Source: an uncultured Dehalococcoidales bacterium
GTDB lineage: Bacteria > Chloroflexota > Dehalococcoidia > Dehalococcoidales > UBA5760
NCBI GenBank assembly: GCA_964472625.1
Contig: CAYYLM010000002.1
Span: 9,366 to 73,365 of the forward strand
Direction: 5' to 3'
DNA: 64,000 bases
In this document: in pieces, positions 6,838 through 49,234 of the stretch
How the letters are laid out: every line of letters starts with the position of its first letter
How positions within the stretch are numbered: position 1 is the first letter of the stretch
The notes under the pieces: generated by a model
Seen by the model: only the letters and a program-made list of their open reading frames with translations
Told to the model about the DNA's origin: nothing
The model's database searches: none
Position numbers and translations under genes: made by a program

Positions 6838-8412
6838 TTATCTGTCAGGGTCGGCCCCTCCGTAGGTCAGGATGACTATGGTTTCATTGGTAAAACTGAT
6901 CTTAAAACCGGCGGCAAATAGGTCAGTAAGCGGGTTTTCCAGCGTCCCTCTATGTAGTAGCAGGAATTTAACCTGATATGCCTCTGCCAGACGGCGCAGT
7001 TCTTCGGGTTCGGCATCCGGTGACAGGAAGCGGTGAGCAATCTCGGCCTGAGCCCGCTCGTCACGGAAGGAAAGCCAGCGGGTGTCCACCGCCAGATAGG
7101 TGGGCAGCCGGGTATAGCCTTCCACCCACCAGCCGAGGATACCGCCGCGCGGCGTCTCGTTGGCGATAACCCGGTCCCCTGGAGTTCCGTGGCTTTGGAG
7201 CCAGTCTAGGGCAGCCAGTACCGGTCCGTCGACAACCTGGTAATGATTGAAGGCCCGCTCAGCCTGCTGCCCGCCAAGCACGAGCACGCTAGTCAGGGCG
7301 CTAACTATAACGGTGATGGTCAGGATGCGTATTGCCCGCTTTCCCAGCCTTGCCAGCCGGGAAAATGTTTCTTTATTCATGAGGATCGCAACGGCGACAC
7401 CAATCGAGAGTGTTAGCCCGACCTGCAGCAGGTGAGCCGACCTTATTTCGTGTATCGCTGCGAAGGTCAATATCGAGGAGATGCCGAGGGTTGCTGCCGC
7501 ATCGGCCAGGAGAAGGCGGCGCCTCTTCAAAACTGCCCAGCCAGTAAAAGCGCCCCCGGTCACCGCTATCGCCACCCACAGGTGGAGTTCGCCGTACCAG
7601 GAATCGGGATTGGCTAGGGTTCTCAGCAGGCTAAACTGCTGAGGGTTAAAGGGATTACTGGCTAGCAGAGTAACTGTCCTCAGGTAGACAGGAATGACTA
7701 AAGCCAATAGCGTGCCAGCAGTCACTAGGCATGCCACGTGCCGTCGGCTCAGGTGGCATCTTGGTAGCAGGGAGTGGGACCCCCGGTTCTCGTAGACACG
7801 GACTATCAGCAGGACACCCAGGGCTAGCGCTAACTGGATAGCGGCTAGGGTGTGCGTTGCCACCGTAGCCACGGTGGAGAAGGCGAAGCCCACCAAAAAC
7901 CAGACCCGGCCGGTACGTAGCCCCTGGAGCAGCAGGTAGATAGAGAGCACCAGGAAGGCAGCCCCCAGTAGTTGTGGGTAGCCTCCCCAGGCGAGCACCT
8001 CGTTGTGGTAACCCATGGCCGGTATGGCCGCCGCCAGCAGGGCGGCGAGCCAGGGATTCATCGATGTTCTAAGTAGGAGATAGGACGGGATGCTTAAGCA
8101 GGCGGCGGCTACCAGTCCCAGCACCTTCAGGGCAGTCAGCGGAGGCAGGAGGTAGAGAGTGCCGCGGAGCATCACCAGAAATAGCGGTGGGTAGGCCACC
8201 TCTGCCGCCTTGACGTGGTTGCCGAAGAGTTCAAGACTAAGGGCAAGCCAGTTGCCCCCATCGGGACCTGGCGGAGCTACCTCGGCACTCAGCATTATCC
8301 AATGGTGCAGGCTTAAGGCAGCCACTAGTCCGATGAGCAGTATAATGCTACCGGCGGTGGGTGAGATAAACTTACCGACTCTGGGCCATTTAATGTTGGC
8401 GAGCTCGGTCAT
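6838..8412 (-). CDS. Polytopic membrane protein, putative GT-C-fold glycosyltransferase
   Basis: About 12 TM helices, first loop PPGPDGGNW, YPPLF, WGGYPQ, THTLA, and a C-terminal soluble domain, in a glycosyltransferase cluster. Confidence 0.55.
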   Translation of the reverse strand: MTELANIKWPRVGKFISPTAGSIILLIGLVAALSLHHWIMLSAEVAPPGPDGGNWLALSLELFGNHVKAAEVAYPPLFLVMLRGTLYLLPPLTALKVLGLVAAACLSIPSYLLLRTSMNPWLAALLAAAIPAMGYHNEVLAWGGYPQLLGAAFLVLSIYLLLQGLRTGRVWFLVGFAFSTVATVATHTLAAIQLALALGVLLIVRVYENRGSHSLLPRCHLSRRHVACLVTAGTLLALVIPVYLRTVTLLASNPFNPQQFSLLRTLANPDSWYGELHLWVAIAVTGGAFTGWAVLKRRRLLLADAAATLGISSILTFAAIHEIRSAHLLQVGLTLSIGVAVAILMNKETFSRLARLGKRAIRILTITVIVSALTSVLVLGGQQAERAFNHYQVVDGPVLAALDWLQSHGTPGDRVIANETPRGGILGWWVEGYTRLPTYLAVDTRWLSFRDERAQAEIAHRFLSPDAEPEELRRLAEAYQVKFLLLHRGTLENPLTDLFAAGFKISFTNETIVILTYGGADPDR

Positions 8413-8417
8413 CCAAG

Positions 8418-9461
8418 CTAAGTCCCTTCTTGAGAGCGCCGGAGTATCTCTTCCATCAGGGCAACCACCTGCCAGCCGTCCTGCGCTCGCGTTGGGGGTT
8501 GCCTGCCATCTGATACCGCATCCAAAAACTGGCCTATCAGCCGGTCATGGCCGTAGGACAGCTGACCACATGTCGCGTGTAGGCCGGAGGTGCTAATCCC
8601 TCTCCACAAGCGGAGGGTACCCAACAGTGACATTTTTAAGACATCGCGTGCCCGATGAGCCTGCTCCGGGGGTAAATGGATGAGGATATCACGAAACAGG
8701 TCCAGTATTAACACTGCCCGGGAGCAGAACAGGATAAGTAGCCATTCCGAAAAGGGCGCCCCAAACCACATGGTCAGGTAACCGTCGCCGCAGGCCCCCT
8801 GCAAACGAGCCTCAGTTCGTGCTGCCCCTGGTGGCAAGTCCCGGGCGCCACTCATGTGCCAGGCCTGCTCTACTCTCAGTTCCCCCAGAAAATACCGCAT
8901 CAGGTAGAGAAAGTGAGGTGCCTCGTCGAAGAAGAGCCCCCCGGGCAGGTCGTTAAACCAGGTGGGCAGACGCCTCCGTGAGCTACTTAACTGGATTCCC
9001 ATCACCCAGTGCACCTTGCCAACCTTACCGCTCTCAAGCAGGGACTTTGCCTTCTCCAGTGACCGGGAGAAGAGGAAGTTGTGGGCCGGGCATAGTATCA
9101 CCCCGGCGCTACCGGCCAGTGCTTCCAAAGCCTGGCCCTCCCCAGAGGTCAGCGTCATCGGTTTTTCCACCAGCACGTGTTTACCGGCCCGGATAGCGGC
9201 CTCGACCAGCCAGGCGTGTGTCCCCGGCGGGGTGCACACGGAGACCACGTCCAGTGGTTCCTCGAGGAACTTCTCGAGGCTGGTGAAAGACCGGGAAATC
9301 CGGAATCGCCGGGCAACAGATTCGGTGCTAGTTGGCTCACGACCCAGAATTGCACTGAGGGTAGCTCGGCTATCCCGCTTAAAAGCGGGGATGTGACGCT
9401 TGAGCGCTACCCATCCTGTCCCTACAATACCCACCCGCACCCGTTTCTGTACATCATCCAC
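8418..9461 (-). CDS. Gfo/Idh/MocA family oxidoreductase
   Basis: VGIVGTGWVA Rossmann start, CTPPGTH, HVLVEKP motif. Confidence 0.88.
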   Translation of the reverse strand: MDDVQKRVRVGIVGTGWVALKRHIPAFKRDSRATLSAILGREPTSTESVARRFRISRSFTSLEKFLEEPLDVVSVCTPPGTHAWLVEAAIRAGKHVLVEKPMTLTSGEGQALEALAGSAGVILCPAHNFLFSRSLEKAKSLLESGKVGKVHWVMGIQLSSSRRRLPTWFNDLPGGLFFDEAPHFLYLMRYFLGELRVEQAWHMSGARDLPPGAARTEARLQGACGDGYLTMWFGAPFSEWLLILFCSRAVLILDLFRDILIHLPPEQAHRARDVLKMSLLGTLRLWRGISTSGLHATCGQLSYGHDRLIGQFLDAVSDGRQPPTRAQDGWQVVALMEEILRRSQEGT

Positions 9462-10605
9462 GACGGTGTATCTCCTCGTTGTAGACGTGCTCTGTCTGGT
9501 CTACGACAGCATCCCAGGTATAGCCGTCCTTCACGAGCTCCCGTCCCCGGCGCCCCATCTCCTGAGCCAGGGAGCGGTCATCTAGCAGCCTGACGATAGC
9601 CTGGGCCAGCGCCGTGCTGCTACCAACCGGAACCAGGAAGCCATGGACGCCGTCCTTCACCAGCTCGGGGGTGCCGCCAACGGGAGTCGCCACCACGGGT
9701 ATAGCCGATGCCATCGCCTCCAGCACCACTAGGGGCATACCCTCTAATGATGATGGTCTTACCAAGAGAGCTGCCTCACGCATCAACTGGGGTACATCTT
9801 TCCGTATTCCTAGGAACTGGACTGCACCCCTAAGCCCCAGCTTATGGGCCTGCCCTTGAAGTCGAGTTCGAAGGGGGCCGTCACCCACCACTACGAACTG
9901 CGCCTTCGGGTGCTGGGCTAAGACTAGCGGTACCGCTTGAATCAGCGTTTCTGGGCCCTTGTTAGGCACCAAACGTCCTACAAAAAGAACCGTCTCTCCC
10001 CAGTTACTCTGCTCCGGTCTGGGGTGGAATAGACTAGCATCAACCCCATTGGGGATTACCGACACCGGGGTCGAGTGCCCGCCTATGTGGCGGGCGTGCT
10101 CCGCCACAGCGTTGGACACGCAGGTCACGTGGTCACTGCGCCGCACGATGTATCTTCCCACGGTTAACTCATAGGTTCGGACGAACGTCCTGAGCGCCCT
10201 ACTGCCACCTTCCAATCGCCCTAGGTGGAGGGTGGTAACCAGCGGAACGTGAAACGTCGTTCTGAGCAGAGCTGCCACTTCGGTAGTGCGGGAGAATAGA
10301 TTGTGAGCATGGATTAGGTCTGGCTGGAAACTACGGATAAGCCGAGTTAGAGCACCCAGGACTGGCACCGAGGCAGTAAACTGGACACCAAGCCACCGGG
10401 TCAGCTCCAGAGCTGGCGCTCGGTAGACTGTTAGTCCGTTGCTAGACTCGGTGGCCGGTGCGGGACAGGTTTGTAAGGTCAAGACAGTAACCTTATGGCC
10501 GCGCCGAACCAGACCGTGACATAGCTCGGCAGCCACTCGCTCCACACCACCACCAACGTGGGGTGGAAAGTAATCACACAACATCAAAATGCGTAATCCC
10601 GGCAC
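9454..10605 (-). CDS. Glycosyltransferase family 4
   Basis: FPPHVGGG-VE, IPNGVD, FVGRLVPNKG, EGMPLVVLEAMA motifs. Confidence 0.92.
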   Translation of the reverse strand: MPGLRILMLCDYFPPHVGGGVERVAAELCHGLVRRGHKVTVLTLQTCPAPATESSNGLTVYRAPALELTRWLGVQFTASVPVLGALTRLIRSFQPDLIHAHNLFSRTTEVAALLRTTFHVPLVTTLHLGRLEGGSRALRTFVRTYELTVGRYIVRRSDHVTCVSNAVAEHARHIGGHSTPVSVIPNGVDASLFHPRPEQSNWGETVLFVGRLVPNKGPETLIQAVPLVLAQHPKAQFVVVGDGPLRTRLQGQAHKLGLRGAVQFLGIRKDVPQLMREAALLVRPSSLEGMPLVVLEAMASAIPVVATPVGGTPELVKDGVHGFLVPVGSSTALAQAIVRLLDDRSLAQEMGRRGRELVKDGYTWDAVVDQTEHVYNEEIHRRG

Positions 10606-10852
10606 CTTTCCATCTCGCTCAATACAGGCTTATCGTCTCACCCGAGGGCACACAGTGATATATTACATTCTTTCTTACCTTGCGGGCAACGTCTTTCCAT
10701 CTGCTCACAACAGCGTTTATGGGGCTTTACTGTCAAAGTAGTGGCTATTTTAGGTTATTGTCTCAAATAGTGTTTTGTGCTAAGGTATTGATGAAGACCA
10801 CATTTAAGGTAAGAGTCGCCGTCTCGCGCCCTCAGCCAGACGAATTTTAGTT

Positions 10853-11560
10853 GTGAAACAGGAGAAATACTGGTTGCGGCACTTAATTAGTGTCATTGTG
10901 CCCACTCTCAACGAGGCAGAGTGCATAGGGGCTCTGGTGTCAACTATACCCGTGGTAGAGTTTAGAGCTCGGGGATTTGAGACTGAGATATTGGTCGTGG
11001 ATAACGGTTCGGTAGATGGCACGGCAGAGCTGGCGAGAAACGCGGGCGCCCGGGTAGTCTCCGAACCACGGCGAGGATACGGTTTTGCCTATCTCCTAGG
11101 ATTTAAGGAGGCCAAGGGTGGCATCATCTGCACCCTTGATGCCGACGGCACCTATCCTGCGGCTGCCCTGCCTGAGATGGTCGACAGGCTGTTAGGGGAG
11201 GATCTGGACTTTGTCAATGCCGACCGTTTCTCGTTTATGATGAATGGCGTTATGCCTCGGACCAGACGGTTGGGTAATGCCATCCTGACGCTTACCAGTC
11301 ATGTTCTTTTCCGGCTGCCCTTCAGCGATTCACAATCAGGCATGTGGGTCTTCAGGAGGGAGTTACTCGATAAGATGCGGCTACGTGCCACCGGCATGGC
11401 TCTATCAGAAGAGATAAAAATTGAAGCTGCCTGGCGGGTAAAGGCCCGTTGCGCTGAGTTACCTATCCATTATGGTTACCGAAGCGGTGACTCAAAGCTA
11501 CGTATGTGGCGTGATGGGTTCGGTAACCTTATCTATCTGCTGCGGAAACGCCTCACCTAG
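10853..11560 (+). CDS. Glycosyltransferase family 2, polyprenol-phosphate glycosyltransferase (DPM1-like)
   Basis: VIVPTLNEA, VVDNGSVDGT, RRGYG, LDADGTYP, DSQSGM, R.GDSKL. Confidence 0.88.
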   Translation: MKQEKYWLRHLISVIVPTLNEAECIGALVSTIPVVEFRARGFETEILVVDNGSVDGTAELARNAGARVVSEPRRGYGFAYLLGFKEAKGGIICTLDADGTYPAAALPEMVDRLLGEDLDFVNADRFSFMMNGVMPRTRRLGNAILTLTSHVLFRLPFSDSQSGMWVFRRELLDKMRLRATGMALSEEIKIEAAWRVKARCAELPIHYGYRSGDSKLRMWRDGFGNLIYLLRKRLT

Positions 11561-11584: not shown

Positions 11585-12097
11585 TCACGGATTTACTGTA
11601 GTCTCCCCAGTCTCATAATTGCCGCTAACGTAGGTCGTTACCCCTGGGGTGACGGTGACCACAGTTGGCGGTGGGGTCTGGTACCCGTCCATATCCTGGA
11701 AGGATACCGTGTAATCCCCTGCCTCCAGGTTTACCCAGAGCCCCCAGTCGTTCATCGGGTTACCATCAACGAATATCGTATTTGCCGTCGGCAGCACCGG
11801 GGACGTCTCTACCCTCAGATTACCCAACTGGATAAAAGAGACGACCACCTGGGTAGTGCCGTCGGAATTCACTACTACCGGTTGGCTTAGCGGCTGAGAT
11901 TGAGTTACCGGGTCGCCCTCCGGTGGGTAGTAGGTTACCTCAACCTCAGATGGGGTAAGGTAGCCGGTAACATCGCTTAGAGAGAGGGTATACTCCCCGG
12001 GGGGCATTTTTACCCAGTCAAGCCCCCAGTCATTTCGGGGGATACCGTCAACGGATATTGTGGTGGCAACTGCCGGTGAAGTCTCCACCCGGAGCAG
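11585..12097. repeat. Copy 1 of a 513-bp near-identical duplication (C-terminal module)
   Basis: Aligns without gaps to 13692-14204 (offset 2107); about 11 mismatches counted by eye. Confidence 0.95.
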
Positions 12098-13666
12098 CCC
12101 CGTGGGTAGATAGTCAAGCGCCATCCAGTCTATGTGAGGGCCACCGGTGGTACCAGCGGACTCAAGCCTTATGGTATTATCACCAGCATCAAGCGGGATA
12201 TCTATGCTCTGCCCCCGCCAGCACCTATCGGCGCCGGTCGGCTCGAACGAAAGGCTGTCACTGACCACAGTCTCGTTTACCATGACCTTAAGCGGCTTGT
12301 CAGCTGCACTTCCGTTGGCATACCTGATGACCAGGGTCTTGGCGGTGGCGTAAGCCGCATTTACCGTCATCTCAACGTAGCTTCCCATCTCATCGTCGAG
12401 ATTGACATACGAAGCGCCGGTAAAGCCTCTTTCTGTAGTTTCGATTGCTGCGTGGTACAGGGTTTCCTTCTCCGCCTGGTGTAACTCCCTCAGGTTACTA
12501 TACTTTGTCCTTTGCTGCTCATTGGCGAAGAGGAAGGCTCCCTGACCGTGGTTATCATTGGTTACCTGCTCTCGGTTGATATAATACGAGTAGGGGCTAC
12601 CGACATCGGTCCCCTGACAGGTGCCGTAGAGGTTGGTTTCGCCAAGGGCGTCAAGCTCTATGTTGCTCAGTATGCCTTCATAACCTTTCTTAGCGGTGGT
12701 CTCGTAGTCGGCGCTATCGATATAGCCTGCGTCGATTGCCTTGGACAGGGCGTAGGTATACATGCAGCCGCTGGACTGTTCCACCCAGTTATCGGTCAGG
12801 TCGCCTTTGTCCACGACCTGATACCACAGGCCGGTGGTGTCGTCCTGATAGTTTTTGATGCCCTCGAGGAGCTCAACCAGTATATCAATTACGGCCTGCC
12901 GGTTGGCATGGTCACTGGGAATCTTCTCCAGAACCTCGGTACAGGCAACCACGTACCAGCCCATTGCCCGGCACCAGACCTCGGGGGAAAGGTGGGTGGT
13001 CTCGTCAGCCCAGCTTGCCGAACCGTCCTCGTCCCAGGCATGGTACCCCAGTTTGATCGCCGGGTATTGCAGATGGCTATAGTATATAATCAGCTGGTTG
13101 GTGCACTCGTTATTGCAGTATTCGGTATCGCCAAACACCTCGCCGTAGTTAGCTAGGAAAATCGTCAGCATGAAAGCCCCATCCAGCCAGAGCTGATCCA
13201 CAGTCCAAGTGTTGTGAACCAAGCCCCCGTCGGTGGTGCGGGGATAGGTGTCAATCCGGTCTCTTATCTGCTGGGCGGCGGTCTGATATTTGGTCTCCCC
13301 GGTCGCTTCATAGAGGTGGCAGAGCAGTAACCCGGGCATCATGTTATCCAGTCTATCAAGAGGAATGCTACCGTCCAGCCCACTATCGCTGACAAATCTG
13401 TCTACCCAGTCCTTAATAAAGTTATAGTAAGCAGTGTCACCCGTCCGCTGGTACACCCGCCACATACCCTCTAGAAATAACCCTTGAGGATACTGCCAGC
13501 TCCCAAACGTCTCGGGGGTGTACCTTGCCATAACTGAATCGCAGAGCTCTACCGACCAGTCGGTATCTTCACCCTGAGCCACAGCCGGGCTCGTGCTGCC
13601 GAAGAATGAGGCGGCACTACCCGTCAGGAGTATCAGGATAAGTATTACACCTAAAATCCTTTTCAT
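11585..13666 (-). CDS. Secreted glycoside hydrolase family 105/88 with CBM35-like module and C-terminal PEGA-like repeats
   Basis: Signal peptide; WLDGAFM, YHAWDE and WCRAMGW GH105 motifs; QAE...GFTGASYVN...IRYANG...NTIRL...GPHIDW CBM6/35 pattern; shared C-terminal module. Confidence 0.8.
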   Translation of the reverse strand: MKRILGVILILILLTGSAASFFGSTSPAVAQGEDTDWSVELCDSVMARYTPETFGSWQYPQGLFLEGMWRVYQRTGDTAYYNFIKDWVDRFVSDSGLDGSIPLDRLDNMMPGLLLCHLYEATGETKYQTAAQQIRDRIDTYPRTTDGGLVHNTWTVDQLWLDGAFMLTIFLANYGEVFGDTEYCNNECTNQLIIYYSHLQYPAIKLGYHAWDEDGSASWADETTHLSPEVWCRAMGWYVVACTEVLEKIPSDHANRQAVIDILVELLEGIKNYQDDTTGLWYQVVDKGDLTDNWVEQSSGCMYTYALSKAIDAGYIDSADYETTAKKGYEGILSNIELDALGETNLYGTCQGTDVGSPYSYYINREQVTNDNHGQGAFLFANEQQRTKYSNLRELHQAEKETLYHAAIETTERGFTGASYVNLDDEMGSYVEMTVNAAYATAKTLVIRYANGSAADKPLKVMVNETVVSDSLSFEPTGADRCWRGQSIDIPLDAGDNTIRLESAGTTGGPHIDWMALDYLPTGLLRVETSPAVATTISVDGIPRNDWGLDWVKMPPGEYTLSLSDVTGYLTPSEVEVTYYPPEGDPVTQSQPLSQPVVVNSDGTTQVVVSFIQLGNLRVETSPVLPTANTIFVDGNPMNDWGLWVNLEAGDYTVSFQDMDGYQTPPPTVVTVTPGVTTYVSGNYETGETTVNP

Positions 13667-13691
13667 TTTTTCGCTCGGCTAAGGGGGTTAA

Positions 13692-14204
13692 TCACGGGCC
13701 TACTGTAGTCTCCCCAGTCTCATAATTGCCGCTAACGTAGGTCGTTACCCCTGAGGTAACTGTCGCCACAGTTGGTGGTGGGGTCTGGTACCCATCCATA
13801 TCCTGGAAGGATACCGTGTAATCCCCTGCCTCCAGGTTTACCCAGAGCCCCCAGTCGTTCATCGGGTTACCATCAACGAATATCGTATTTGCCGTCGGCA
13901 GCACCGGGGACGTCTCTACCCTCAGATTACCCAACTGGATAAAAGAGACGACCACCTGGGTAGTGCCGTCGGAATTCACTACTACCGGTTGGCTTAGCGG
14001 CTGAGATTGAGTTACCGGGTCGCCCTCCGGTGGGTAGTAGGTTACCTCAACCTCAGATGGGGTAAGGTAGCCGGTAACATCGCTTAGAGAGAGGGTATAC
14101 TCCCCGGGGGGCATTTTTACCCAGTCAAGCCCCCAGTCATTTCGGGGGATGCCGTCAACGGATATTGTGGTGGCAACTGCCGGTGAAGTCTCCACCCGGA
14201 GCAG
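13692..14204. repeat. Copy 2 of the 513-bp near-identical duplication
   Basis: Same as 11585-12097; both encode LLRVETSPAVATTISVDGIPRNDWGL...GETTV. Confidence 0.95.
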
Positions 14205-15512
14205 ACCAGGCGGCTCGGTGGTGAAGCTCGTATCATCTCCGTAGTTAGTGCCGTCACCAACTGCCTTAGCCCGGAAATGGTAGGTAGTATCAGGCGACAG
14301 GCTGGGCAGGCTGAAGCTAAACGGTCCGGTGGTAACCATTGACTCTGGCGTTGTTTCATTACCATAGGCGGCAGTCTCTCCCCACTCGAAGGATACGTCT
14401 ACATCTGAGGTGGTGCCGAGGTCGTCCAGATTACCATTTAGGGTGGCGGAGATGGCGGTGATGTCAGAGGCATCACTGGTAGTTACTGAAGGCATTATTG
14501 TCGCCAGTTGAATAGCGCTAACCCCAATGTGTTGATGACCCGAGTAGATCCCCCCCCAGGTCATCGTATGGGTACCGTAGTCCCAGGTATCGTGCAGATA
14601 GACGGTGTCGCCGCTAACGTCGTACCCGAAGCCGAGCATGGTATGGCCCTCGATGTGAATCAGCACCGGCCGCCCGGCGTCAATTTCAGCCGTATAATCA
14701 TCGAAGGTAAACCCCAAGTCTGGGTTAGTGCCCTGCCCCTTTATATACTGGTTGAAGTTGGTTATTACGCTGTAACCGCGTGACTCGGCAAATAGCTTCA
14801 TGCCGTGGCAGCCGTCCCGCAGTCCATAAGGCGATAAGTCAGGGTCAACCCAAGGACTGCCATCGGTATAGTAGCCAAAAATAGTGGAGCCATCTGGATT
14901 GTCAAACGTAGACTGGCTGGTCCCCATGAAATCCCCGGTGCAGCCCTCGTGGGTGTGCTCTATCCAGCCATTAACAATCCAGGGGTCGTCGGTGTCATCG
15001 AGATAGTATATCCAGTAGTCGTCGACATGCCCCCGGGTTGTTCGCCCGTCTATGCCGTCATGGGTGGCACTTAGGGGGCACTCACCATCAGAGCCCCCAA
15101 TCCCGTAACCCCAGATGGAGTTATCCAGGGGACAGACGCCACCGTTGGTGGGCCCGGTATACATGTCGCGGTAACCGGTCCGGTCGTAGTAGCCGAACAG
15201 CATCGCCGCCGAGGTAGCCGAGCACCCGTAGCTCCAGTTAAAGGCGGGTACCTCGCTGAGAGCACCAGTCGCTGTCCGAATATCGACCTCAGGGACAGTG
15301 GCTGCGGCGGCCCTGGTTTCCGGCGGTTTTCCGGGAACACTAATCACGTCTATCTGCCTTCCGTCTTCATCAACAAACGTCTCGACCAGATACGGATTCT
15401 CAGTCTCGGCCGCCACGGGGCCCGTGCTGACAAAAAACGGGGCACTGCTACCAATGAGCAATGTCGAGATAGCGATGATACCGGCGATCCATTTGAACTT
15501 TACTTTTAGCAT
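13692..15512 (-). CDS. Secreted protein: papain-like (C39/C10-like) cysteine peptidase domain, Ig/FnIII-like domain, PEGA-like repeats
   Basis: Signal peptide; WSYGCSATSAAM (Cys), GRPVLIHIEGHTMLGFGY (His), YLHDTW (Asp); VTTSDASDITAISATLNG Ig-like repeat. Confidence 0.65.
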   Translation of the reverse strand: MLKVKFKWIAGIIAISTLLIGSSAPFFVSTGPVAAETENPYLVETFVDEDGRQIDVISVPGKPPETRAAAATVPEVDIRTATGALSEVPAFNWSYGCSATSAAMLFGYYDRTGYRDMYTGPTNGGVCPLDNSIWGYGIGGSDGECPLSATHDGIDGRTTRGHVDDYWIYYLDDTDDPWIVNGWIEHTHEGCTGDFMGTSQSTFDNPDGSTIFGYYTDGSPWVDPDLSPYGLRDGCHGMKLFAESRGYSVITNFNQYIKGQGTNPDLGFTFDDYTAEIDAGRPVLIHIEGHTMLGFGYDVSGDTVYLHDTWDYGTHTMTWGGIYSGHQHIGVSAIQLATIMPSVTTSDASDITAISATLNGNLDDLGTTSDVDVSFEWGETAAYGNETTPESMVTTGPFSFSLPSLSPDTTYHFRAKAVGDGTNYGDDTSFTTEPPGLLRVETSPAVATTISVDGIPRNDWGLDWVKMPPGEYTLSLSDVTGYLTPSEVEVTYYPPEGDPVTQSQPLSQPVVVNSDGTTQVVVSFIQLGNLRVETSPVLPTANTIFVDGNPMNDWGLWVNLEAGDYTVSFQDMDGYQTPPPTVATVTSGVTTYVSGNYETGETTVGP

Positions 15513-26384: not shown

Positions 26385-26456
26385 AGCGGGTGAAGGGATT
26401 CGAACCCTCGACGTCTTGCTTGGGAAGCAAGCACTCTGCCACTGAGTTACACCCGC
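26385..26456 (-). tRNA. tRNA-Gly(CCC)
   Basis: GCGGGTG/CACCCGC acceptor, CTTGC-TTCCCAA-GCAAG anticodon arm, GTTCGAATC T-loop, U discriminator, CCA not encoded; TTGATT-17-TAGAAT promoter upstream. Confidence 0.95.
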
Positions 26457-32620: not shown

Positions 32621-34171
32621 GTGGCTACTAAAGTAATTGTCCCCAAGCTAGGCATGAGCACGGAGCCGATTACGCTGGTTGAGTGGAAGGCTAAGGAAGG
32701 CGACCGGGTCGAGAAGGGTAGTGTTGTTCTGGTGGTGGAGACGGAGAAGATCAGGCACGATATTGAGGCTGAGGCGTCGGGGTTTCTTCACATTCTGGTT
32801 GAGGCAGGAAAGGAGGCACCCATCGGTTCAGCGGCGGCTCTTATTGCTGAAACCAAGGAGGAATTGGCGACCCTTAAGAAGGGCGAGGGGGCAGCAGCGG
32901 CCGCTGAGGTTGAGGAGGTTTCCCCAGTTGAAGCTCCCGCTAAGGCGAAAGAGCCCCCCCCGACTGAAGCTTTAGTCGCCGGAACCAAGGTTGTCGTCCC
33001 CAAGCTAGGCATGAGCACGGAGCCGATTACGCTGGTTGAGTGGAAGGCTAAGGAAGGCGACCGGGTCGAGAAGGGTAGTGTTGTTCTGGTGGTGGAGACG
33101 GAGAAGATCAGGCATGATGTTGAGGCTGAGGCATCGGGGTTTCTTCACATCCTGGTTGAGGCAGGAAAGGAGGCGCCCATCGGCTCAGCGGCGGCTCTTA
33201 TCGTCGCTGCCAAGGAGGAACTGGAGGCCCTTCAAAAGGGTGAGGTACCGCTAGCGGCCGCCGAAGTTAAAGAGGCTCCCCCGGCTGAGGCGGAAAAAGA
33301 GCGTATTCAAATCTCCCCCGTAGCTCGTAAGATGGCTGAGGAGCACAGGATAGATATCGCCGAAGTAGTCGGTAGCGGTCCCGAAGGCAGGATTGTGAAG
33401 GAGGATATCGAGAGAGAGATTGCCAAGAAGGCGGCACCTCCCGTTGAAGCCGTAGCTGAGGGGTATCAGGGTAGACGAGTAAAATCCAAGCTCCCGCTTA
33501 CGGGTATCCGTAAGGCAGTTGCGGAGCATATGCACCGGAGCCTATCGGTCTCGGCTCAGCTTACGGTCATGGGCGAATTGGATGTAGCTGAGCTAGTAAA
33601 GTTGCGCAAAAAGCTGGTGGGGCAGGAAGAGAAGCTCGGCGCCCGCGTTACCTATACCGACCTTATGGTAGCCGCGGTGGCTAGGCTGCTCAAAGAATAT
33701 CCACTGGTTAATGCTAGCCTGATAGGTAACGAGATTATACAGTGGGAGGATATCAACGTCTCGGTTGCGGTGGCTATGGAGGAGGGGCTAATTGTTCCGG
33801 TGGTAAAAAATGCCGATCAGAAATCACTGGTTGAGATAAGCAAAGAGTTACGGACGCTAGCTAAGAAGGCGCGGGAGAGGACACTGGCACCGGAAGAGGT
33901 TCAGGGAGGCACCTTTACCATAACTAACCTTGGGGCGTTGGGTGGTGGCTATCGTTTTGAGACGGTAATCATAAATCAACCCGAGTCCGCCATTTTAGGC
34001 ACTGGGGGCCTAAGCGACCGGGCTGTGGTCAGGGAGGGGCAGATTGTGATTCGACCAATCATGACCTATTACCTAACCTACGACCACCGGGTATTTACCG
34101 GGGCGGTGGCAGCGGCATTCATTAACAGCTTAGCCGAGCTATTGCAAACCCCAGAACCTTTAACAGTCTAG
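32621..34171 (+). CDS. Dihydrolipoamide acyltransferase E2 with two lipoyl domains
   Basis: Two VETEKI lipoyl-Lys motifs, ISPVARKMA...GSGPEGRI binding domain, GGTFTITNLG, DHRVFTG. Confidence 0.9.
   Translation: MATKVIVPKLGMSTEPITLVEWKAKEGDRVEKGSVVLVVETEKIRHDIEAEASGFLHILVEAGKEAPIGSAAALIAETKEELATLKKGEGAAAAAEVEEVSPVEAPAKAKEPPPTEALVAGTKVVVPKLGMSTEPITLVEWKAKEGDRVEKGSVVLVVETEKIRHDVEAEASGFLHILVEAGKEAPIGSAAALIVAAKEELEALQKGEVPLAAAEVKEAPPAEAEKERIQISPVARKMAEEHRIDIAEVVGSGPEGRIVKEDIEREIAKKAAPPVEAVAEGYQGRRVKSKLPLTGIRKAVAEHMHRSLSVSAQLTVMGELDVAELVKLRKKLVGQEEKLGARVTYTDLMVAAVARLLKEYPLVNASLIGNEIIQWEDINVSVAVAMEEGLIVPVVKNADQKSLVEISKELRTLAKKARERTLAPEEVQGGTFTITNLGALGGGYRFETVIINQPESAILGTGGLSDRAVVREGQIVIRPIMTYYLTYDHRVFTGAVAAAFINSLAELLQTPEPLTV
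32639..33223 (+). repeat. Near-identical tandem lipoyl-domain coding repeats (32639-32866 and 32996-33223)
   Basis: Long identical nucleotide runs at offset 357. Confidence 0.9.
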
Positions 34172-41874: not shown

Positions 41875-44283
41875 ATGGCTAATCTGAGTAAAGAGAAGGT
41901 TGCGAGTAAGAATGATGAGTTTGATTCTCGCCAGTCAGTAAAGCTTAATGCCTTTGAGTCACTAGGAGGGGGAGGCAAAGTGCCACAATTGGAGATTGAC
42001 CTTAAACTAAGTGACCAGATTTGGGAATATCTGCGCAAGCAGGGTTACAAGGTAACCGAGGGGGCAAGGCTCGTCGGCAAGTCGGGGGTTGAGCATACCT
42101 TTGACATGCTGGCGCAGAGGGATGACGGTTTTATCAGCTACACTATGGCGATATGCATTGCGGCTGGGGGAGATAAGGAAGCAGAGGTACAAACTATTTT
42201 CAACTTCGCCAACAAGGCCTATGATACTGGTATTATTGACCGGGTGCTTATTGCTGTCCCGGAGATTAGTCCTGAGGCGAAGCAACTGGCTGGTAAACAG
42301 CGGATAAAGGTTATTGAAGCCGAAAAGATGGGGGCTTTGCTTGACACTAAGCCTGTGGCGCAGCTTAAGCCTGGGGAGCCACTTAGGTTTGAGACACAAG
42401 CAGAGCTGGTGAAATCTTTGCTGAGTCGGGGTTACCAGGTCGAGGAAAAGGCTAAGGTTAAGAGCCGATCTGGGGTTGAGTATAGCTTTGACATACTGGC
42501 TTATGTTGATATGGATGGGGCTAATCACAGCCTAGGTATCGACTTTCTGAGTGCGGAGAAGGAAGTAGGTTTGGATCAGGTATCCATATTTGATACTAAA
42601 GCCTACGAGGTTGGCATTGATGATAAAGTCATTGTTGTCTCGCCGGTGCTTAGCCTGGAAGCGAAGCAGTTTGCCCAGCATCAGCGAATAAGGGTTTTCG
42701 AAGTGGGCGCAAAGCCAGCTTCCAAGGATTCAACGTCAGCAGAGGAAGCAACTAAACCTGATTCGGCTAAGGTTAAAACGAGACAGCTACGGCAGATGGT
42801 TCAGGCTGAGGCATTACAAATGATACCCGAGGTGATGGCAAGAAGGTATAATGCCGTACCACTAACTCTCTCGGGTAACACGCTGAAGGTTGCTATGGCC
42901 GACCCGACCGATATCTTTGCTCTGGAGGCTTTCTCTGCCCAGAGTAAAAAGAGGATTCAACCGATAGGCGCCAGTGCTAAGGAAGTCAGGGAGGCTATTG
43001 ACTTTAACTACAAAGGCCATAGCGAGATCGAGAAGCAGATTGCTCATATCTCTATCCCGGCCGATGCCCTTGATGAAAGGCTGGCCATTGATGCGGCTAT
43101 TGATGCCCCTCTGGCTCAGGCTCTTAACCTTATTGTTGAGGAAGCGGTGAGAGCACACTCATCTGATATTCACATTGAACCCGAGGAGGATAGGGTGAGG
43201 GTACGCTACCGCATTGATGGTACCCTTCAGGATATGATGTCTCTACCGGTGACGGTGCATCGTGCTGTTATTTCTCGAATTAAGATTTTGGCTGATATGA
43301 ATATTGCTGACCACCATCGTCCTCAGGATGGACAGTTTTCTACTAAAGCCAAGGGGCGAGAGATAGATGTTCGTGTCGCTACCGCACCTACCGTCTTCGG
43401 TGAGATGGCGGTGCTGCGGCTTCTTGACAAAGCTCGGGCTACTTTGGGGTTATCGGAACTTGGTTTCTTGCCAGATAGCCAGGCCAAGTACGAAAGTTTG
43501 CTCAAGGTACCCTATGGTATGCTCTTGATCAGTGGTCCCACCGGAGCCGGGAAAACCACCACCTTATACGCTTCCATTAATTCCCTTGATACCATGGGGC
43601 GGAACATAATTACGATTGAAGACCCGGCCGAGTATCGGTTTAAGGATATTAATCAGATTCAGGTTAATTCTCAGGCTGGCATTACCTTTGCCCGAGGACT
43701 GCGGTCGATACTCCGTCTTGACCCCGATGTTATCATGGTCGGCGAAATACGTGATGTTGAGACAACTCAAATCGCAGTTCAGTCAGCTTTGACTGGGCAC
43801 CTGATGCTTACCTCCATCCACGCTAGTGATGCGGCTGGTGTACTCACCCGTCTCATTGACCTCGGAGTTGAGCCGTTCTTGATCGCTTCCTCCGTTATTG
43901 GTGTTGTCGCTCAGCGGATGGTGCGTCGCATTTGCCCGGATTGCGGCCACCCTATTGAGGCACCCCTGGTGGAAAGACTGGCTTATGAAAAGGAGATGGG
44001 GGAGGAAAAGACCGAGTTTTTATACGGTACCGGTTGTGCTACCTGTGCCTATACTGGTTATGTGGGCCGAACCGGAATCTTTGAGATTCTGGTGGTGAGT
44101 GATGGCATCCGAGCTCTGGTTACTAATCGAGCTAATAGCAATGAGATTCGTTCTCTGGCGTTTGAGGAGGGGATGAGGGCAATGATGAATGATGGTATGC
44201 GCAAGGTGCAAAGCGGGATTACTACCCCGTCTGAAGTGCTGCGCAGTGCCTACTCCCCCGACCTTAGGCCTGAAGCAAAATAG
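41875..44283 (+). CDS. pilB: Type IV pilus extension ATPase PilB/GspE with two N-terminal restriction-endonuclease-like repeats
   Basis: GSPII_N region, GPTGAGKTT, TIEDPAEY, LRLDPDVIMVGEIRD, HLMLTSIH, CPDC..GCATC Zn motif. GTG 41980 is an alternative start with a GGAGG site. Confidence 0.9.
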   Translation: MANLSKEKVASKNDEFDSRQSVKLNAFESLGGGGKVPQLEIDLKLSDQIWEYLRKQGYKVTEGARLVGKSGVEHTFDMLAQRDDGFISYTMAICIAAGGDKEAEVQTIFNFANKAYDTGIIDRVLIAVPEISPEAKQLAGKQRIKVIEAEKMGALLDTKPVAQLKPGEPLRFETQAELVKSLLSRGYQVEEKAKVKSRSGVEYSFDILAYVDMDGANHSLGIDFLSAEKEVGLDQVSIFDTKAYEVGIDDKVIVVSPVLSLEAKQFAQHQRIRVFEVGAKPASKDSTSAEEATKPDSAKVKTRQLRQMVQAEALQMIPEVMARRYNAVPLTLSGNTLKVAMADPTDIFALEAFSAQSKKRIQPIGASAKEVREAIDFNYKGHSEIEKQIAHISIPADALDERLAIDAAIDAPLAQALNLIVEEAVRAHSSDIHIEPEEDRVRVRYRIDGTLQDMMSLPVTVHRAVISRIKILADMNIADHHRPQDGQFSTKAKGREIDVRVATAPTVFGEMAVLRLLDKARATLGLSELGFLPDSQAKYESLLKVPYGMLLISGPTGAGKTTTLYASINSLDTMGRNIITIEDPAEYRFKDINQIQVNSQAGITFARGLRSILRLDPDVIMVGEIRDVETTQIAVQSALTGHLMLTSIHASDAAGVLTRLIDLGVEPFLIASSVIGVVAQRMVRRICPDCGHPIEAPLVERLAYEKEMGEEKTEFLYGTGCATCAYTGYVGRTGIFEILVVSDGIRALVTNRANSNEIRSLAFEEGMRAMMNDGMRKVQSGITTPSEVLRSAYSPDLRPEAK

Positions 44284-46423: not shown

Positions 46424-49234
46424 ATGATTAGAAGGATAACAGTTTTACTGCGTAGCGCCAAAAGGGAAGAGGCGGGACAGGCTTTCATCTTGGTTCTAAT
46501 CCTGCTGTTGGTGGGTGGTCTCATCATTGCGCCACTGCTAGCCTTTATGGGTACCGGCCTCCAGAGTGGTCAGGTTTTCGAACAGAAGACGAGTGAGTTA
46601 TATGCCGCTGATGCCGGCATCGAGGATGGTATTTGGCAGGTGCAGTTTGATGAACTCGAGTCACTCAGTAGCCCCACGGTCTATAGCGTGTATGACTACA
46701 GCACGGTGTGGGATTTCCAGCTGGATGAGCAGGTAAACGAAGAGGACGTGACGGGCACCATTGAGAATGTCTGGATTCCCAAGGATTTGGCAGCGCCCGG
46801 TGAGGCTCAGGCGGAGGATATTATTGAGGGGGTTGATGGTAAACCCCCCAAAGCGGTAGTAACCGGCACTGTTCCCGACACAGAAGAATATAAAATCAAG
46901 ATAACCTATAATAAGGAACAAGAGGACGTCTATCAATACGGTGATGAATTCGTAATAGAAGAGATCGGGATATGGCTACCGCCCGGGTTTGAATATGTAG
47001 TTGGCTCCAGTAACCTCGAGGCTGACTCCTTCGCTGATTATTATTCGGTGCCGGTAGTCTCAGATCACTCCGGGGGACAGGCGGTCATCTGGAGCTTCAG
47101 CTCAGTTCCTATGTCTGTTTTCCCGGGTGTGAATCCGTCGGACATGCCCATGGTGACTCAGGTCACCTTCCAGTTTACGGCGCGCCGGGAGGGAAGTAAC
47201 CCCGAAGCCCTGTCCTGGGTAGATACCAATATGAACTTGAGTGGCAGTATTAGTTATGCCTGGGATGCCGACACCAAGGTTTATAAGATTACCTCTCAAG
47301 CTGGCGATACCAACCTTGAAGCCCATACCGCCAAGACCGAGCTACGCGAGGTCGGTGGGGCGATAGCGGGAGACTACCGTGCCATCGGCAACACCCTGAT
47401 GACCAACGAATACGGCGGTTCGACTCCGGTGGTGCGGGATACTCTGCTGGCTGAGAGCGATGCTACTGTCAGTGATATCCCCGACAGCGCCGAGATCCAG
47501 GCGGCTTATCTCTACTGGTCAGCCTGGCTGGAAGAGGAGCTGGAGCAAGAGTCTGGTGACACGACGGTATTCGAAGACGACTGTTCCAACTTCAGTAATT
47601 GGAATAATCCGGGTAATGATTGGGTAATCTCCAGTGGCACTTTCCGGGGGCATCATTATGGCAGTGCCCAGTATAGATTCCTGACCCTGCAGTCAAGCCT
47701 AGACCTGAGCTCATATTCAGGTAAACTGACGACCGTTTACTGGCAGCAGTGGGAATATGGTACCCTGGAGAGTAATGACTACCTCTGGCTTGCCTTTTCC
47801 GGTGATGGCGGCAGCAGCTGGAGCAGCAATATTGTGGCCTTCAGCAATGATATCGGGAGCACGCCGCAGGATTTCAGCTACACCATTCCGGATGAGTATC
47901 TCACCGCTAACTTCAAGATGAGACTTCAAATAGGTGACGATAATGGCTGGGTTGGCGGTGGCGAGTACTGCTTTGTCGATAACATTGGTATCTCGGTATC
48001 CAATGCCATACTTTATGATGACTGTTCTGACTTCGTAGCTGGCCCTATTAATTGGACTAACGGTAGCCACTGGACAATCTACAACGGTGATGAATTTAGG
48101 GGGCAGGGTGGGGGCAGTACCGCCGATAGGCGTCTCACCATGACCGACAGCCTGGATTTAAGTGCCTACTCCGACAAGACGATTGTCGTCTCCTGGGAGC
48201 AACGTGAGAGCGGGTACCTAGAGTCCAGCGACTATCTCTACTTTGCCTTCTCCGGCAATGGTGGCAGCAGCTGGAGCAGTAATATTCAGGCCTTCCGTGA
48301 TGATATCGGGAGCACACCACAGGAGTTCAGCTACACCATTCCAGAGCAGTATCTTACCGCCAACTTTAAGATGAGGTTTTACCTCTACTTCAACTATTAT
48401 AATGAGTACGCCTATGTTAACAATATTACTATCTATGAAACCTCAGGGGACGCCTGGGCCGATGCCACGGCTATCTTCAAGATAGATGGCACCCAGGTTT
48501 ACTTTGATGAATATGGAGTCCCTCAGACGGGTGGGGAGGAAATAGTTGCTTCGGAGTGGACAATCCTGGAAAATCAGACCGGCGAGTATTCCTATGCCTG
48601 CTTCTTGGACGTGACCGACCTGGTGCAGGCGTTTAGTGCTGAGGGTGATGATGGCAATCACCCCGGTAACGGCGCCTATACCGTCGGGGGAGTGTATGGG
48701 GATACCGACGATGAGTGGTCCTATGCCGCCTGGTCGCTGATACTTGTCTACGCCAGCGCGGAGACGTATGGTCACCAGCTCTATCTCTACGATGACTTTG
48801 TCTACTCGAGTATGGACGTCAATGTTGATTTTAATGGTGACGGGCAACCGGGTGGTCGAATCAGTGGCTTTCTGGTTCCAGAACAGATTGAAGGCGAGGG
48901 CGACGATGCCGATGCCGCTACGATGACCTGCTTTGTCGGTGAGGGAGATGATTACTATAACTACGACTATTTTAGGTTCGAGGGAACCAACCTCTCCGAC
49001 GGTAGGAGCTCTAATGATGTCTGGAACTCATGGTCGGTTGGGCTGGTAGAGGACGGCATTGATATTGACACCTTCCATGTTACCTGGGGGAGTGGCCTGC
49101 TGGAGGCTGGGGATACCTCGGCTCAGATAGACCTGCCTACCCAGACTGATTCCTGGAACCTAGTGTATATCATCCTTTCTTTCCGCAGCGAGGTCGTCGC
49201 TGGGGGCACTATTAGCTACTTGATAAAAAGTTAG
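46424..49234 (+). CDS. Large PilX/GspK-like tip pilin-adhesin with tandem internal beta-sandwich domains
   Basis: EAG|QAFILVLILLLVGG prepilin lacking Glu5, AADAGIEDG PilX motif, very acidic, two internal repeats. Confidence 0.75.
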   Translation: MIRRITVLLRSAKREEAGQAFILVLILLLVGGLIIAPLLAFMGTGLQSGQVFEQKTSELYAADAGIEDGIWQVQFDELESLSSPTVYSVYDYSTVWDFQLDEQVNEEDVTGTIENVWIPKDLAAPGEAQAEDIIEGVDGKPPKAVVTGTVPDTEEYKIKITYNKEQEDVYQYGDEFVIEEIGIWLPPGFEYVVGSSNLEADSFADYYSVPVVSDHSGGQAVIWSFSSVPMSVFPGVNPSDMPMVTQVTFQFTARREGSNPEALSWVDTNMNLSGSISYAWDADTKVYKITSQAGDTNLEAHTAKTELREVGGAIAGDYRAIGNTLMTNEYGGSTPVVRDTLLAESDATVSDIPDSAEIQAAYLYWSAWLEEELEQESGDTTVFEDDCSNFSNWNNPGNDWVISSGTFRGHHYGSAQYRFLTLQSSLDLSSYSGKLTTVYWQQWEYGTLESNDYLWLAFSGDGGSSWSSNIVAFSNDIGSTPQDFSYTIPDEYLTANFKMRLQIGDDNGWVGGGEYCFVDNIGISVSNAILYDDCSDFVAGPINWTNGSHWTIYNGDEFRGQGGGSTADRRLTMTDSLDLSAYSDKTIVVSWEQRESGYLESSDYLYFAFSGNGGSSWSSNIQAFRDDIGSTPQEFSYTIPEQYLTANFKMRFYLYFNYYNEYAYVNNITIYETSGDAWADATAIFKIDGTQVYFDEYGVPQTGGEEIVASEWTILENQTGEYSYACFLDVTDLVQAFSAEGDDGNHPGNGAYTVGGVYGDTDDEWSYAAWSLILVYASAETYGHQLYLYDDFVYSSMDVNVDFNGDGQPGGRISGFLVPEQIEGEGDDADAATMTCFVGEGDDYYNYDYFRFEGTNLSDGRSSNDVWNSWSVGLVEDGIDIDTFHVTWGSGLLEAGDTSAQIDLPTQTDSWNLVYIILSFRSEVVAGGTISYLIKS
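47567..48438 (+). repeat. Two ~145-codon tandem repeats inside the adhesin gene (47567-47995 and 48011-48438)
   Basis: Shared DDCS.F...SLDLS.YS.K...LES.DYL..AFSG.GGSSWSSNI.AF..DIGSTPQ.FSYTIP..YLTANFKMR; nucleotide similarity is visible at 47791-47920 vs 48245-48374. Confidence 0.85.

Follow-up and report, generated by a model that had tools for sequence, protein, structure and literature searches.

How did two adjacent genes for unrelated secreted enzymes come to end in almost the same sequence, and what might their common end do? The question is raised by a 64,000-nucleotide (nt) stretch of DNA from an uncultured Dehalococcoidales bacterium (GenBank assembly GCA_964472625.1, contig CAYYLM010000002.1, positions 9,366 to 73,365 of the forward strand), called here the window. 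In it, the genes of a C39-like cysteine peptidase and of a GH105 hydrolase-like protein both terminate in a module of 171 amino acids (aa). We think it probable that the locus is explained by its two-gene layout, the affiliation of the module to a large family, recombination between resident modules and a role of the module in retention. Within this explanation, homologous recombination between pre-existing modules is well supported as the source of the near-identity.

An ungapped comparison of positions 11585-12097 with positions 13692-14204 (offset 2107) gave 11 mismatches over 513 nt, i.e. about 97.8-97.9% identity, and a repeat search of the window returned the same pair. In the coordinates of copy 1, the mismatches are at 11591-93, 11647, 11651, 11654, 11657, 11658, 11669, 11687 and 12044. 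Seven of them are synonymous and four non-synonymous (proportion of synonymous differences, pS, 0.054 overall; ratio of non-synonymous to synonymous proportions, pN/pS, ~0.2), and the two proteins differ by three substitutions (V/A, P/S and N/G) over the 171 aa. Identity is 0.87-1.00 within the repeat and falls to 0.23-0.37, the random level, past 12098/14205 and 3' of the stop codons. The differences are strongly clustered: ten are in the last 103 nt, where divergence is ~10%, and one is in the first 410 nt. The longest identical run, 356 nt without a single silent difference, is reached by random placement with P = 2e-5. The module itself falls into two repeats, A of ~92 aa including an insertion and B of 79 aa, which align over 49 aa with 59% identity (E = 6e-17). 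A first-pass annotation of this DNA had described a two-repeat module of 513 bp, ~98% identical down to its silent sites and ending abruptly at the domain boundary, and the comparison bears out each of these points.

Two adjacent open reading frames (ORFs) of the minus strand are concerned, 13692-15512 (606 aa) and 11585-13666 (693 aa). In each protein, the signal peptide is followed by a catalytic head unrelated to that of the other, by a small adapter, either FN3-like or CBM35, and finally by the 171-aa terminal module. The features of the pair are as follows.

13692-15512, minus strand: gene of the putative secreted C39-like cysteine peptidase, 606 aa, with module copy 2 (ORF and Pfam)
15408-15512, minus strand: predicted Sec signal peptide of the C39-like protein, aa 1-35, ...STGPVAA|E (by eye; cleavage site inferred)
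14502-15407, minus strand: C39-like head, to aa 337, with conserved NWSYGC and GHT motifs (Pfam and homologues)
14208-14501, minus strand: FN3-like adapter, aa 338-435 (weak Pur_ac_phosph_N match)
13692-14207, minus strand: module copy 2, 171 codons and stop (repeat A 13932-14207, repeat B 13695-13931)
13667-13691, minus strand: intergenic spacer of 25 nt, without a terminator-like site
11585-13666, minus strand: gene of the secreted GH105 unsaturated rhamnogalacturonyl hydrolase-like protein, 693 aa, with CBM35 and module copy 1
13577-13666, minus strand: predicted signal peptide of the GH105 protein, aa 1-30, ...SPAVA|QG (by eye; cleavage site inferred)
12524-13558, minus strand: GH105 catalytic domain, aa 37-381 (Pfam and YteR match)
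12107-12478, minus strand: CBM35 domain, aa 397-520 (Pfam)
11585-12100, minus strand: module copy 1, 171 codons and stop (repeat A 11825-12100, repeat B 11588-11824)
11688-12043, minus strand: perfectly identical tract of 356 bp, either the putative product of the latest conversion or a section collapsed in the assembly
10853-11560, plus strand: convergent glycosyltransferase family 2 (GT2) gene, syntenic, together with module copy 1, to locus L140

Both architectures, as already proposed in the first-pass annotation, agree with the Pfam and YteR matches. The GH105 ORF matches Glyco_hydro_88/105 (PF07470) with E = 7.6e-89. Among solved structures, the GH105 enzyme YteR (1nc5; E = 1.2e-77, aa 23-379) is closest to it, and GH105 entries are placed ahead of GH88 entries. 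By homology to characterised enzymes over the catalytic domain, the protein is thus assigned to GH105. Similarly, its match to CBM_35 (PF16990) over aa 397-520 scores 37.0 bits for a gathering score of 28, which identifies a CBM35 domain. No exact match to the GH105 protein is on record in public assemblies. The C39-like ORF matches Peptidase_C39_2 (PF13529) with 38.5 bits for a cut-off of 24, the best stretch covering only aa 252-310, and a sequence search found no solved relative. The head (aa 1-337) has homologues at 176 loci in many phyla, recovered with the patterns AFNWSYGC and WDYGTHTM. As the 25-nt spacer has no terminator-like site, the two genes are probably co-transcribed. The ends of their signal peptides share a motif, S-[AS]-[AP]-x-F-F-[GV]-S-T-[SG]-P-[AV]-[VA]-A.

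To place the two module copies relative to those of other genomes, we used as outgroups the modules of L024 gene 1, which follows a CBM35 domain, and of L140, which follows an Ig_Rha78A_N domain and precedes the same convergent GT2 gene. The two copies of the window are 97.8% alike, as against 80-81% identity to either outgroup. Thus, paralogues within the genome are closer to each other than to orthologues of other genomes, silent sites included, and the near-identity is a case of ordinary concerted evolution, its exact value being subject to a short-read caveat. The differences that do exist are informative. Copy 1 agrees with both outgroups at 11647, 11651, 11658, 11669, 11591-93 and 12044, and copy 2 agrees with the FN3-linked module of L024 gene 2 at the sole comparable site. 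The edges of each copy have therefore kept their own ancestry and the interior is common, which argues for conversion between pre-existing modules rather than for a single graft. The copies are mosaic both in this respect and in the clustering of their differences, although an assembly collapse would give the same clustering.

We propose that the near-identity arose by homologous recombination between two modules already present, i.e. gene conversion, possibly with unequal crossing-over. The latest conversion tract would have homogenised at least the first ~410 nt, and the last ~100 nt would retain the older divergence. The locus shares with known cases of concerted evolution, such as the lipoyl domains of E2 proteins and the repeats of surface proteins, homogenisation within the genome that extends to silent sites and leaves mosaic differences. 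It differs from them in that the converted unit is here the whole terminal domain of two genes whose catalytic parts are unrelated.

An identity maintained without any recombination between the copies, by strong purifying selection on an essential tag or by a mobile element bearing the module, is highly improbable. The high conservation of some motif residues is all that speaks for it, and nothing about that is specific. Selection of this kind is already contradicted by the synonymous sites, which are identical over 356 nt though orthologous modules differ by ~20%. The identity moreover stops exactly at the coding boundaries, no transposase-like ORF was found near the repeat, and the search for inverted repeats in the window returned 0 pairs at the settings used.

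A single recent graft or duplication is a less remote, though still unlikely, explanation. One of the two genes would have been module-free, with no prior homology to convert, until the whole module was copied onto it; in variants of this scenario, a [signal peptide-GH105-CBM35-module] segment was integrated, or a tandem duplication took place. The A-R-B-R-C layout of the locus, with 513-bp direct repeats around 1594 bp of spacer and GH105-CBM35 head, is what a single-crossover insertion would produce, and the heads have clearly been exchanged at the module boundary. In addition, the closest C39-like orthologues, L043 (77%) and L025 (73%), are devoid of the module; this weighs against our interpretation, since it makes an earlier graft onto the C39-like gene conceivable. 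However, a single copying event predicts evenly spread differences and edges that do not match different relatives, contrary to what was found. The module is also already present on C39-like proteins of other Dehalococcoidales (L026, and P0011 on L022/L023), and a Campbell-type integration would itself need a resident homologous module. The first-pass annotation had offered recent domain grafting and gene conversion side by side: the clustering and the relative-specific edges favour conversion and speak against a one-off graft, and heads were nevertheless swapped at the boundary.

Two further observations concern the C39-like orthologues. In L043 and L025, the ORFs end, in the place of the module, in a Trp-rich domain of ~90 aa that follows Ig_Rha78A_N; it reads 'WWWN[GS]xEWVFW[VI]PG...GLEADYS[VI]LVSG' and has no Pfam match. 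We had also considered deducing a direction of conversion, from the GH105 gene to the C39-like gene, from a 22-aa insertion in repeat A. This idea was dropped, as the C39-like orthologue of L026 has the insertion too.

Near-identical repeats call for a check of the assembly, for which Logan contigs of the sediment metagenome runs X1-X3, X4 and X9, with graphs at k=31, were used. All four junctions between repeat and unique sequence are present in contigs of three independent sediment runs (X1, X2 and X3), in which each flank contig enters the repeat by about 30-39 nt. The repeat thus truly exists twice, in two contexts. The four junctions recur with the same gene order in run X9, which contains a marine-sediment strain ~91% identical. 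The X9 contigs break at 11636/11942 and 13743/14049, i.e. at equal relative positions in both copies, and the interior is thus common to both copies in that strain too. Together, these junctions speak against the single-copy artefact that the first-pass annotation had asked to be checked.

A partial artefact deserves more weight. Both copies would exist, and one consensus would have been threaded through both interiors, masking part of ~23-26 real differences (~95% identity). We regard this as a serious possibility, without expecting it to be the case. All observed differences are located within 103 nt of one edge of the repeat or within 54 nt of the other, which is the reach of flank-anchored reads. 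The Logan graphs merge the repeat into a single 504-nt node (11594-12097). In X2 this node combines the edge variants of copy 2 with 15 interior differences, and in X1 it combines the edges of copy 1 with 12 of those interior differences, at 11873-11984. The k-mer depth of the node in X1 and X2 (18.6 and 28.8, respectively) is near that of the single-copy flanks (12-16 and 26-27.5) rather than double. Given a collapsed node with 12-15 extra differences and near-single depth, the interior identity of copy 2 is without independent confirmation, and the true identity of the copies may be ~95%; this also counts against our account. On the other hand, a contig of X3 runs from the unique left flank through the entire copy 1, in which it does not deviate from the window. 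Since bubbles are popped independently in Logan contigs, the X1 and X2 nodes may be chimeric or their interior differences may represent strain variants in the runs, and X4 contains a third haplotype. The qualitative finding holds even at 95%, and comparable near-identity is found in another metagenome-assembled genome (MAG), described below.

The 12 substitutions of X1 and X2 form a 112-nt patch (11873-11984, and 13980-14091 in copy 2) in contigs whose kilobases of flank match the window. At six of these 12 positions, X1/X2 share their state with the L024 gene 1 and L140 modules. A further module at some other place in the genome may have been the donor of the patch.

Homogenisation of modules is not restricted to the window. 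In L006, a 117-kb contig of an Actinomycetes MAG, 882-907 bp of the gene of an S8 subtilase recur with 97.7-98.4% identity in an unrelated neighbour, and a third neighbour shares ~81%. The MAG belongs to the Microflora Danica project, in which Nanopore sequencing was used (PMC12313526), and its name suggests that it was derived from those reads. Within single proteins, the identity of tandem modules reaches 100% in L014/L015, 99.2% in L001 and 90.5% in L009, but only 65-77% in L003, L004, L005 and L007. Homogenisation thus appears frequent in the module family, without being universal. L014 and L015 are a pair of LamG-rich paralogues located 7.5 kb apart on contig CAVXEH010000005.1.

Comparison with close relatives showed that the same gene ends flank different heads. 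L024 gene 2 codes for a signal peptide (L024 852-950) 84% identical in aa to that of the GH105 protein, a metallophosphatase, an FN3-like domain 82% identical in aa to that of the C39-like protein, and a module identical at 38 of 38 aa up to the contig end. The stretch from the module stop through the spacer to the signal peptide is 84-90% identical at the nt level between L024 and the window. L140, with its Ig_Rha78A_N-module gene followed by GT2, is collinear with the window from GT2 (~90% nt identity) through the module (~80%) to the 5' boundary of the latter, where homology ends. The heads found between these ends in close relatives are thus a GH105 enzyme, a C39-like peptidase, a metallophosphatase and an Ig_Rha78A_N-containing protein. 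Judged by these sequences, the signal peptide, adapter and module are the constant ends of genes in the window lineage, and the catalytic heads between them vary. Because the module, adapter and signal peptide are common to several genes, they would serve as recombination joints. Recombination between shared ends would yield the layout of the window, and it could also remove the GH105-CBM35 segment again. Such head swapping between constant ends is modestly interesting in itself.

We next consider the nature of the module. The module matched no Pfam family even at E = 10, PEGA (PF08308) and CarboxypepD_reg (PF13620) included, and neither of its individual repeats matched PEGA at that threshold. 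A search of NCBIfam gave nothing usable, and neither database has a model of its own for the module. Similarly, a sequence search of the PDB with a profile of the module found no solved relative, and an exact 40-mer from the module had no match in the reference genomes. The signatures of the two repeats are G-L-L-R-V-x-T-S-P ... D-G-I-P-R-N-D-W-G-L-D-W-V-K in repeat A and G-N-L-R-V-E-T-S-P ... N-D-W-G-x-W in repeat B. AlphaFold models are all-beta, with a predicted local distance difference test (pLDDT) score of 93 for the A+B pair and 91 for a single repeat. Foldseek searches with a single repeat matched transthyretin-like and CnaB domains with TMq values of 0.57-0.69 overall, among them the transthyretin-like domains of carboxypeptidases D and N (0.57-0.61) and CnaB2 (0.65), with a best E of only 3e-3. 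With the two-domain model, the matches were restricted to weak ones with pilin, SpyCEP and Ig-like domains, with poor TM-scores. The module is thus predicted from these models to be a pair of transthyretin-like beta-sandwiches. A CnaB-type isopeptide domain was ruled out, as there is no invariant Lys/Asp/Glu set.

The relatives of the module helped to place it. Full-length relatives match PEGA at E <= 0.001 in 15 cases out of 71 and CarboxypepD_reg in 11 out of 71. With single repeats of close relatives, two of 23 gave weak PEGA matches (best E = 0.0013). These matches, together with those of the fold, suggest that the module is an outlying bipartite member of the transthyretin-like clan. Since it does not reach the gathering score of PEGA (20.8 bits), it is not a PEGA domain by Pfam's criterion. 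The label 'PEGA-like' in the first-pass annotation hence fits only loosely. The resemblance to PEGA and CarboxypepD_reg lies in an all-beta unit of ~70 aa on surface or secreted proteins (here, units of about 70-85 aa, with repeat alignments 69-79 aa long) and in the pattern G-x-L-x-V-x-T-x-P ... V-D-G ... G ... P-G-x-Y-x-V ... G-Y. In contrast to those domains, the module is a fixed A+B pair, often doubled as A-B-A-B, it has near-invariant Trp motifs (NDWGLDW in A, NDWGxW in B), and it strongly prefers the extreme C-terminus.

To determine the extent of the family, we built a profile from 18 modules; an alignment of 25 diverse modules prepared for a genome scan was discarded as too variable. 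The profile retrieved 3366 representative clusters (50% identity) at E <= 0.001, including 590 at E <= 1e-30. Among the best 150 representatives, 142 have two modules in tandem (A-B-A-B). The module ends no more than five residues from the C-terminus in 105 of the 150, and no more than 15 residues from it in 119. In the reference genomes, most complete ORFs have the end of the module 0-3 residues before the stop, and complete module ORFs have signal-peptide-like N-termini. Among its partner domains are peptidases of the S8, M4, M11, M15 and trypsin types, RCC1, NHL and further propellers, and also LamG, TIG and pentapeptide repeats. The family is mainly bacterial, mostly on Sec-type secreted multidomain proteins of Chloroflexota and Actinomycetota, and its hosts comprise Dehalococcoidales (the closest, 56-66%), Acidimicrobiia, Gaiella, other Actinomycetota and Chloroflexia. 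A conserved Cys pair in the actinobacterial copies fits an extracytoplasmic location. Three of 36 loci (L113, L119 and L127), each with two modules per protein, are from MAGs that bear the label 'Methanobacteriota archaeon'; in L113 and L119, a tail of 45-50 aa that includes a hydrophobic stretch lies behind the modules. The occurrence of similar repeats in archaeal proteins, which the first-pass annotation proposed for Thermoplasmata, thus has some support at the level of archaea.

What the module does may be approached through the other C-termini found on the C39-like head. Homologues of this head end in Por_Secre_tail (52-60 bits) in Bacteroidota and Cloacimonadota, in a type I dockerin or in a membrane helix with a basic tail in others, and in the module in Dehalococcoidales. 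This analogy of position, the preference for the terminus, the presence of signal peptides and the variety of partners together suggest that the module could be a non-catalytic retention or binding domain that holds secreted enzymes at the monoderm cell envelope or on a glycan. Its most likely role, which we put forward tentatively, would be to retain enzymes at the envelope or to bind a glycan of the envelope. The plug-in anchoring or export tag proposed in the first-pass annotation is, by the same analogy, plausible. Several observations nevertheless weigh against a retention role. Neither a sorting motif nor a lipid anchor nor a known wall-binding repeat can be recognised in the module. In ~11 of the best 150 representatives it directly follows the N-terminal signal region, and a few have long tails behind it, so that the expectation of an invariably C-terminal module on secreted proteins holds for most members only. 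Finally, its conserved Trp residues and CBM-like fold would suit substrate binding equally well.

This last point leads to the main alternative, namely that the module is a carbohydrate-binding or substrate-targeting domain for an environmental polymer, and neither an envelope anchor nor a sorting tag. A beta-sandwich with near-invariant Trp residues in its 'NDWGLDW' and 'NDWGxW' loops would fit such a role, the weak fold matches include CBM41 and domain II of rhamnogalacturonan lyase, and the module can be found at either terminus, as is CBM2. However, most of the very diverse partners are not carbohydrate-active, as shown by the peptidases (S8, M4, M11 and trypsin), the propellers (RCC1, NHL and others) and the pentapeptide proteins. 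The GH105 protein is already equipped with a CBM35, and at the archaeal-labelled loci the module adjoins a hydrophobic C-terminal stretch. All in all, we consider polymer targeting rather unlikely, and return to retention at the envelope.

A functional parallel would be the C-terminal sorting domain of the type IX secretion system (T9SS), Por_Secre_tail (PF18962). It too is a small beta-sandwich at the end of many unrelated secreted enzymes, and it has the equivalent position on the same C39-like head in Bacteroidota and Cloacimonadota. Unlike it, the module is a double domain about twice the size, and it has no match to Por_Secre_tail or TIGR04183-type models; the resemblance is therefore positional only. 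To our knowledge, monoderm Chloroflexota and Actinomycetota have neither a T9SS nor an outer membrane. Dockerins, SLH and CWB2 domains and choline-binding repeats are likewise non-catalytic terminal modules present on many enzyme heads per genome, and their shared sequences are prone to recombination and domain shuffling, but their fold and sequence are unrelated to those of the module.

By extension of these analogies, the A+B module might be a dedicated surface-display or retention domain of monoderm Chloroflexota, Actinomycetota and some archaea, with a receptor in the envelope, and it might take part in head swapping within tandem arrays. We offer this as a speculation, and a doubtful one. 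Were it correct, the module would be the functional counterpart of T9SS tails, SLH domains or dockerins, and the module and the conserved signal peptide would form constant gene ends between which catalytic heads are exchanged by homologous recombination.

The module terminates peptidases, glycosidases and adhesin-like proteins, and it merits description as a domain. A family of thousands without a curated model or a solved structure is a target for annotation and for simple binding experiments. Many Dehalococcoidia and other uncultured carriers of the module are abundant in sediments and soils, and the way in which these lineages retain secreted hydrolases at their surface is poorly known. 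The locus is a clear example of shared terminal modules driving concerted evolution and head swapping of secreted enzymes. It also holds a lesson for metagenomics, as such repeats collapse in short-read assemblies.

The genes around the pair were also analysed. On one side are glycan-synthesis genes, coding for GT2, GT4, a Gfo/Idh/MocA oxidoreductase and an epimerase, and on the other side an ABC-2 exporter and a TetR regulator. Partial synteny was observed between L022/L023 and window positions 6838-11560. In L022/L023, genes for GtrA, GT1 and a 579-aa protein come after the C39-like-module gene. Those after it in the window are the GH105 gene and genes for GT2, GT4, the oxidoreductase and a 524-aa protein, membrane-like by eye and without a Pfam match. 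Module genes may thus be linked to a glycan-synthesis cluster.

Some features elsewhere in the window are worth recording. A second repeated-domain similarity is an 88% identical direct repeat (32627-32926 and 32984-33283), corresponding to the two lipoyl domains of an E2 2-oxoacid dehydrogenase component (ORF 32621-34171). A 936-aa ORF (46424-49234) without a Pfam match has internal repeats of ~151 aa (70% nt identity; 47646-47922 and 48099-48375) and is part of a cluster resembling those for type IV pili or type II secretion, with a T2SSE ATPase at 41875-44283 and a PilM-like protein at 49890-51431. The G+C content falls to 0.41-0.44 in the segment 22000-26500, which adjoins a tRNA gene (26385-26456, minus strand) and may have been acquired. 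Finally, the ORF at 53553-54920 (minus strand) combines a TackOD1 output domain and an Mrr-type restriction endonuclease domain in one protein.

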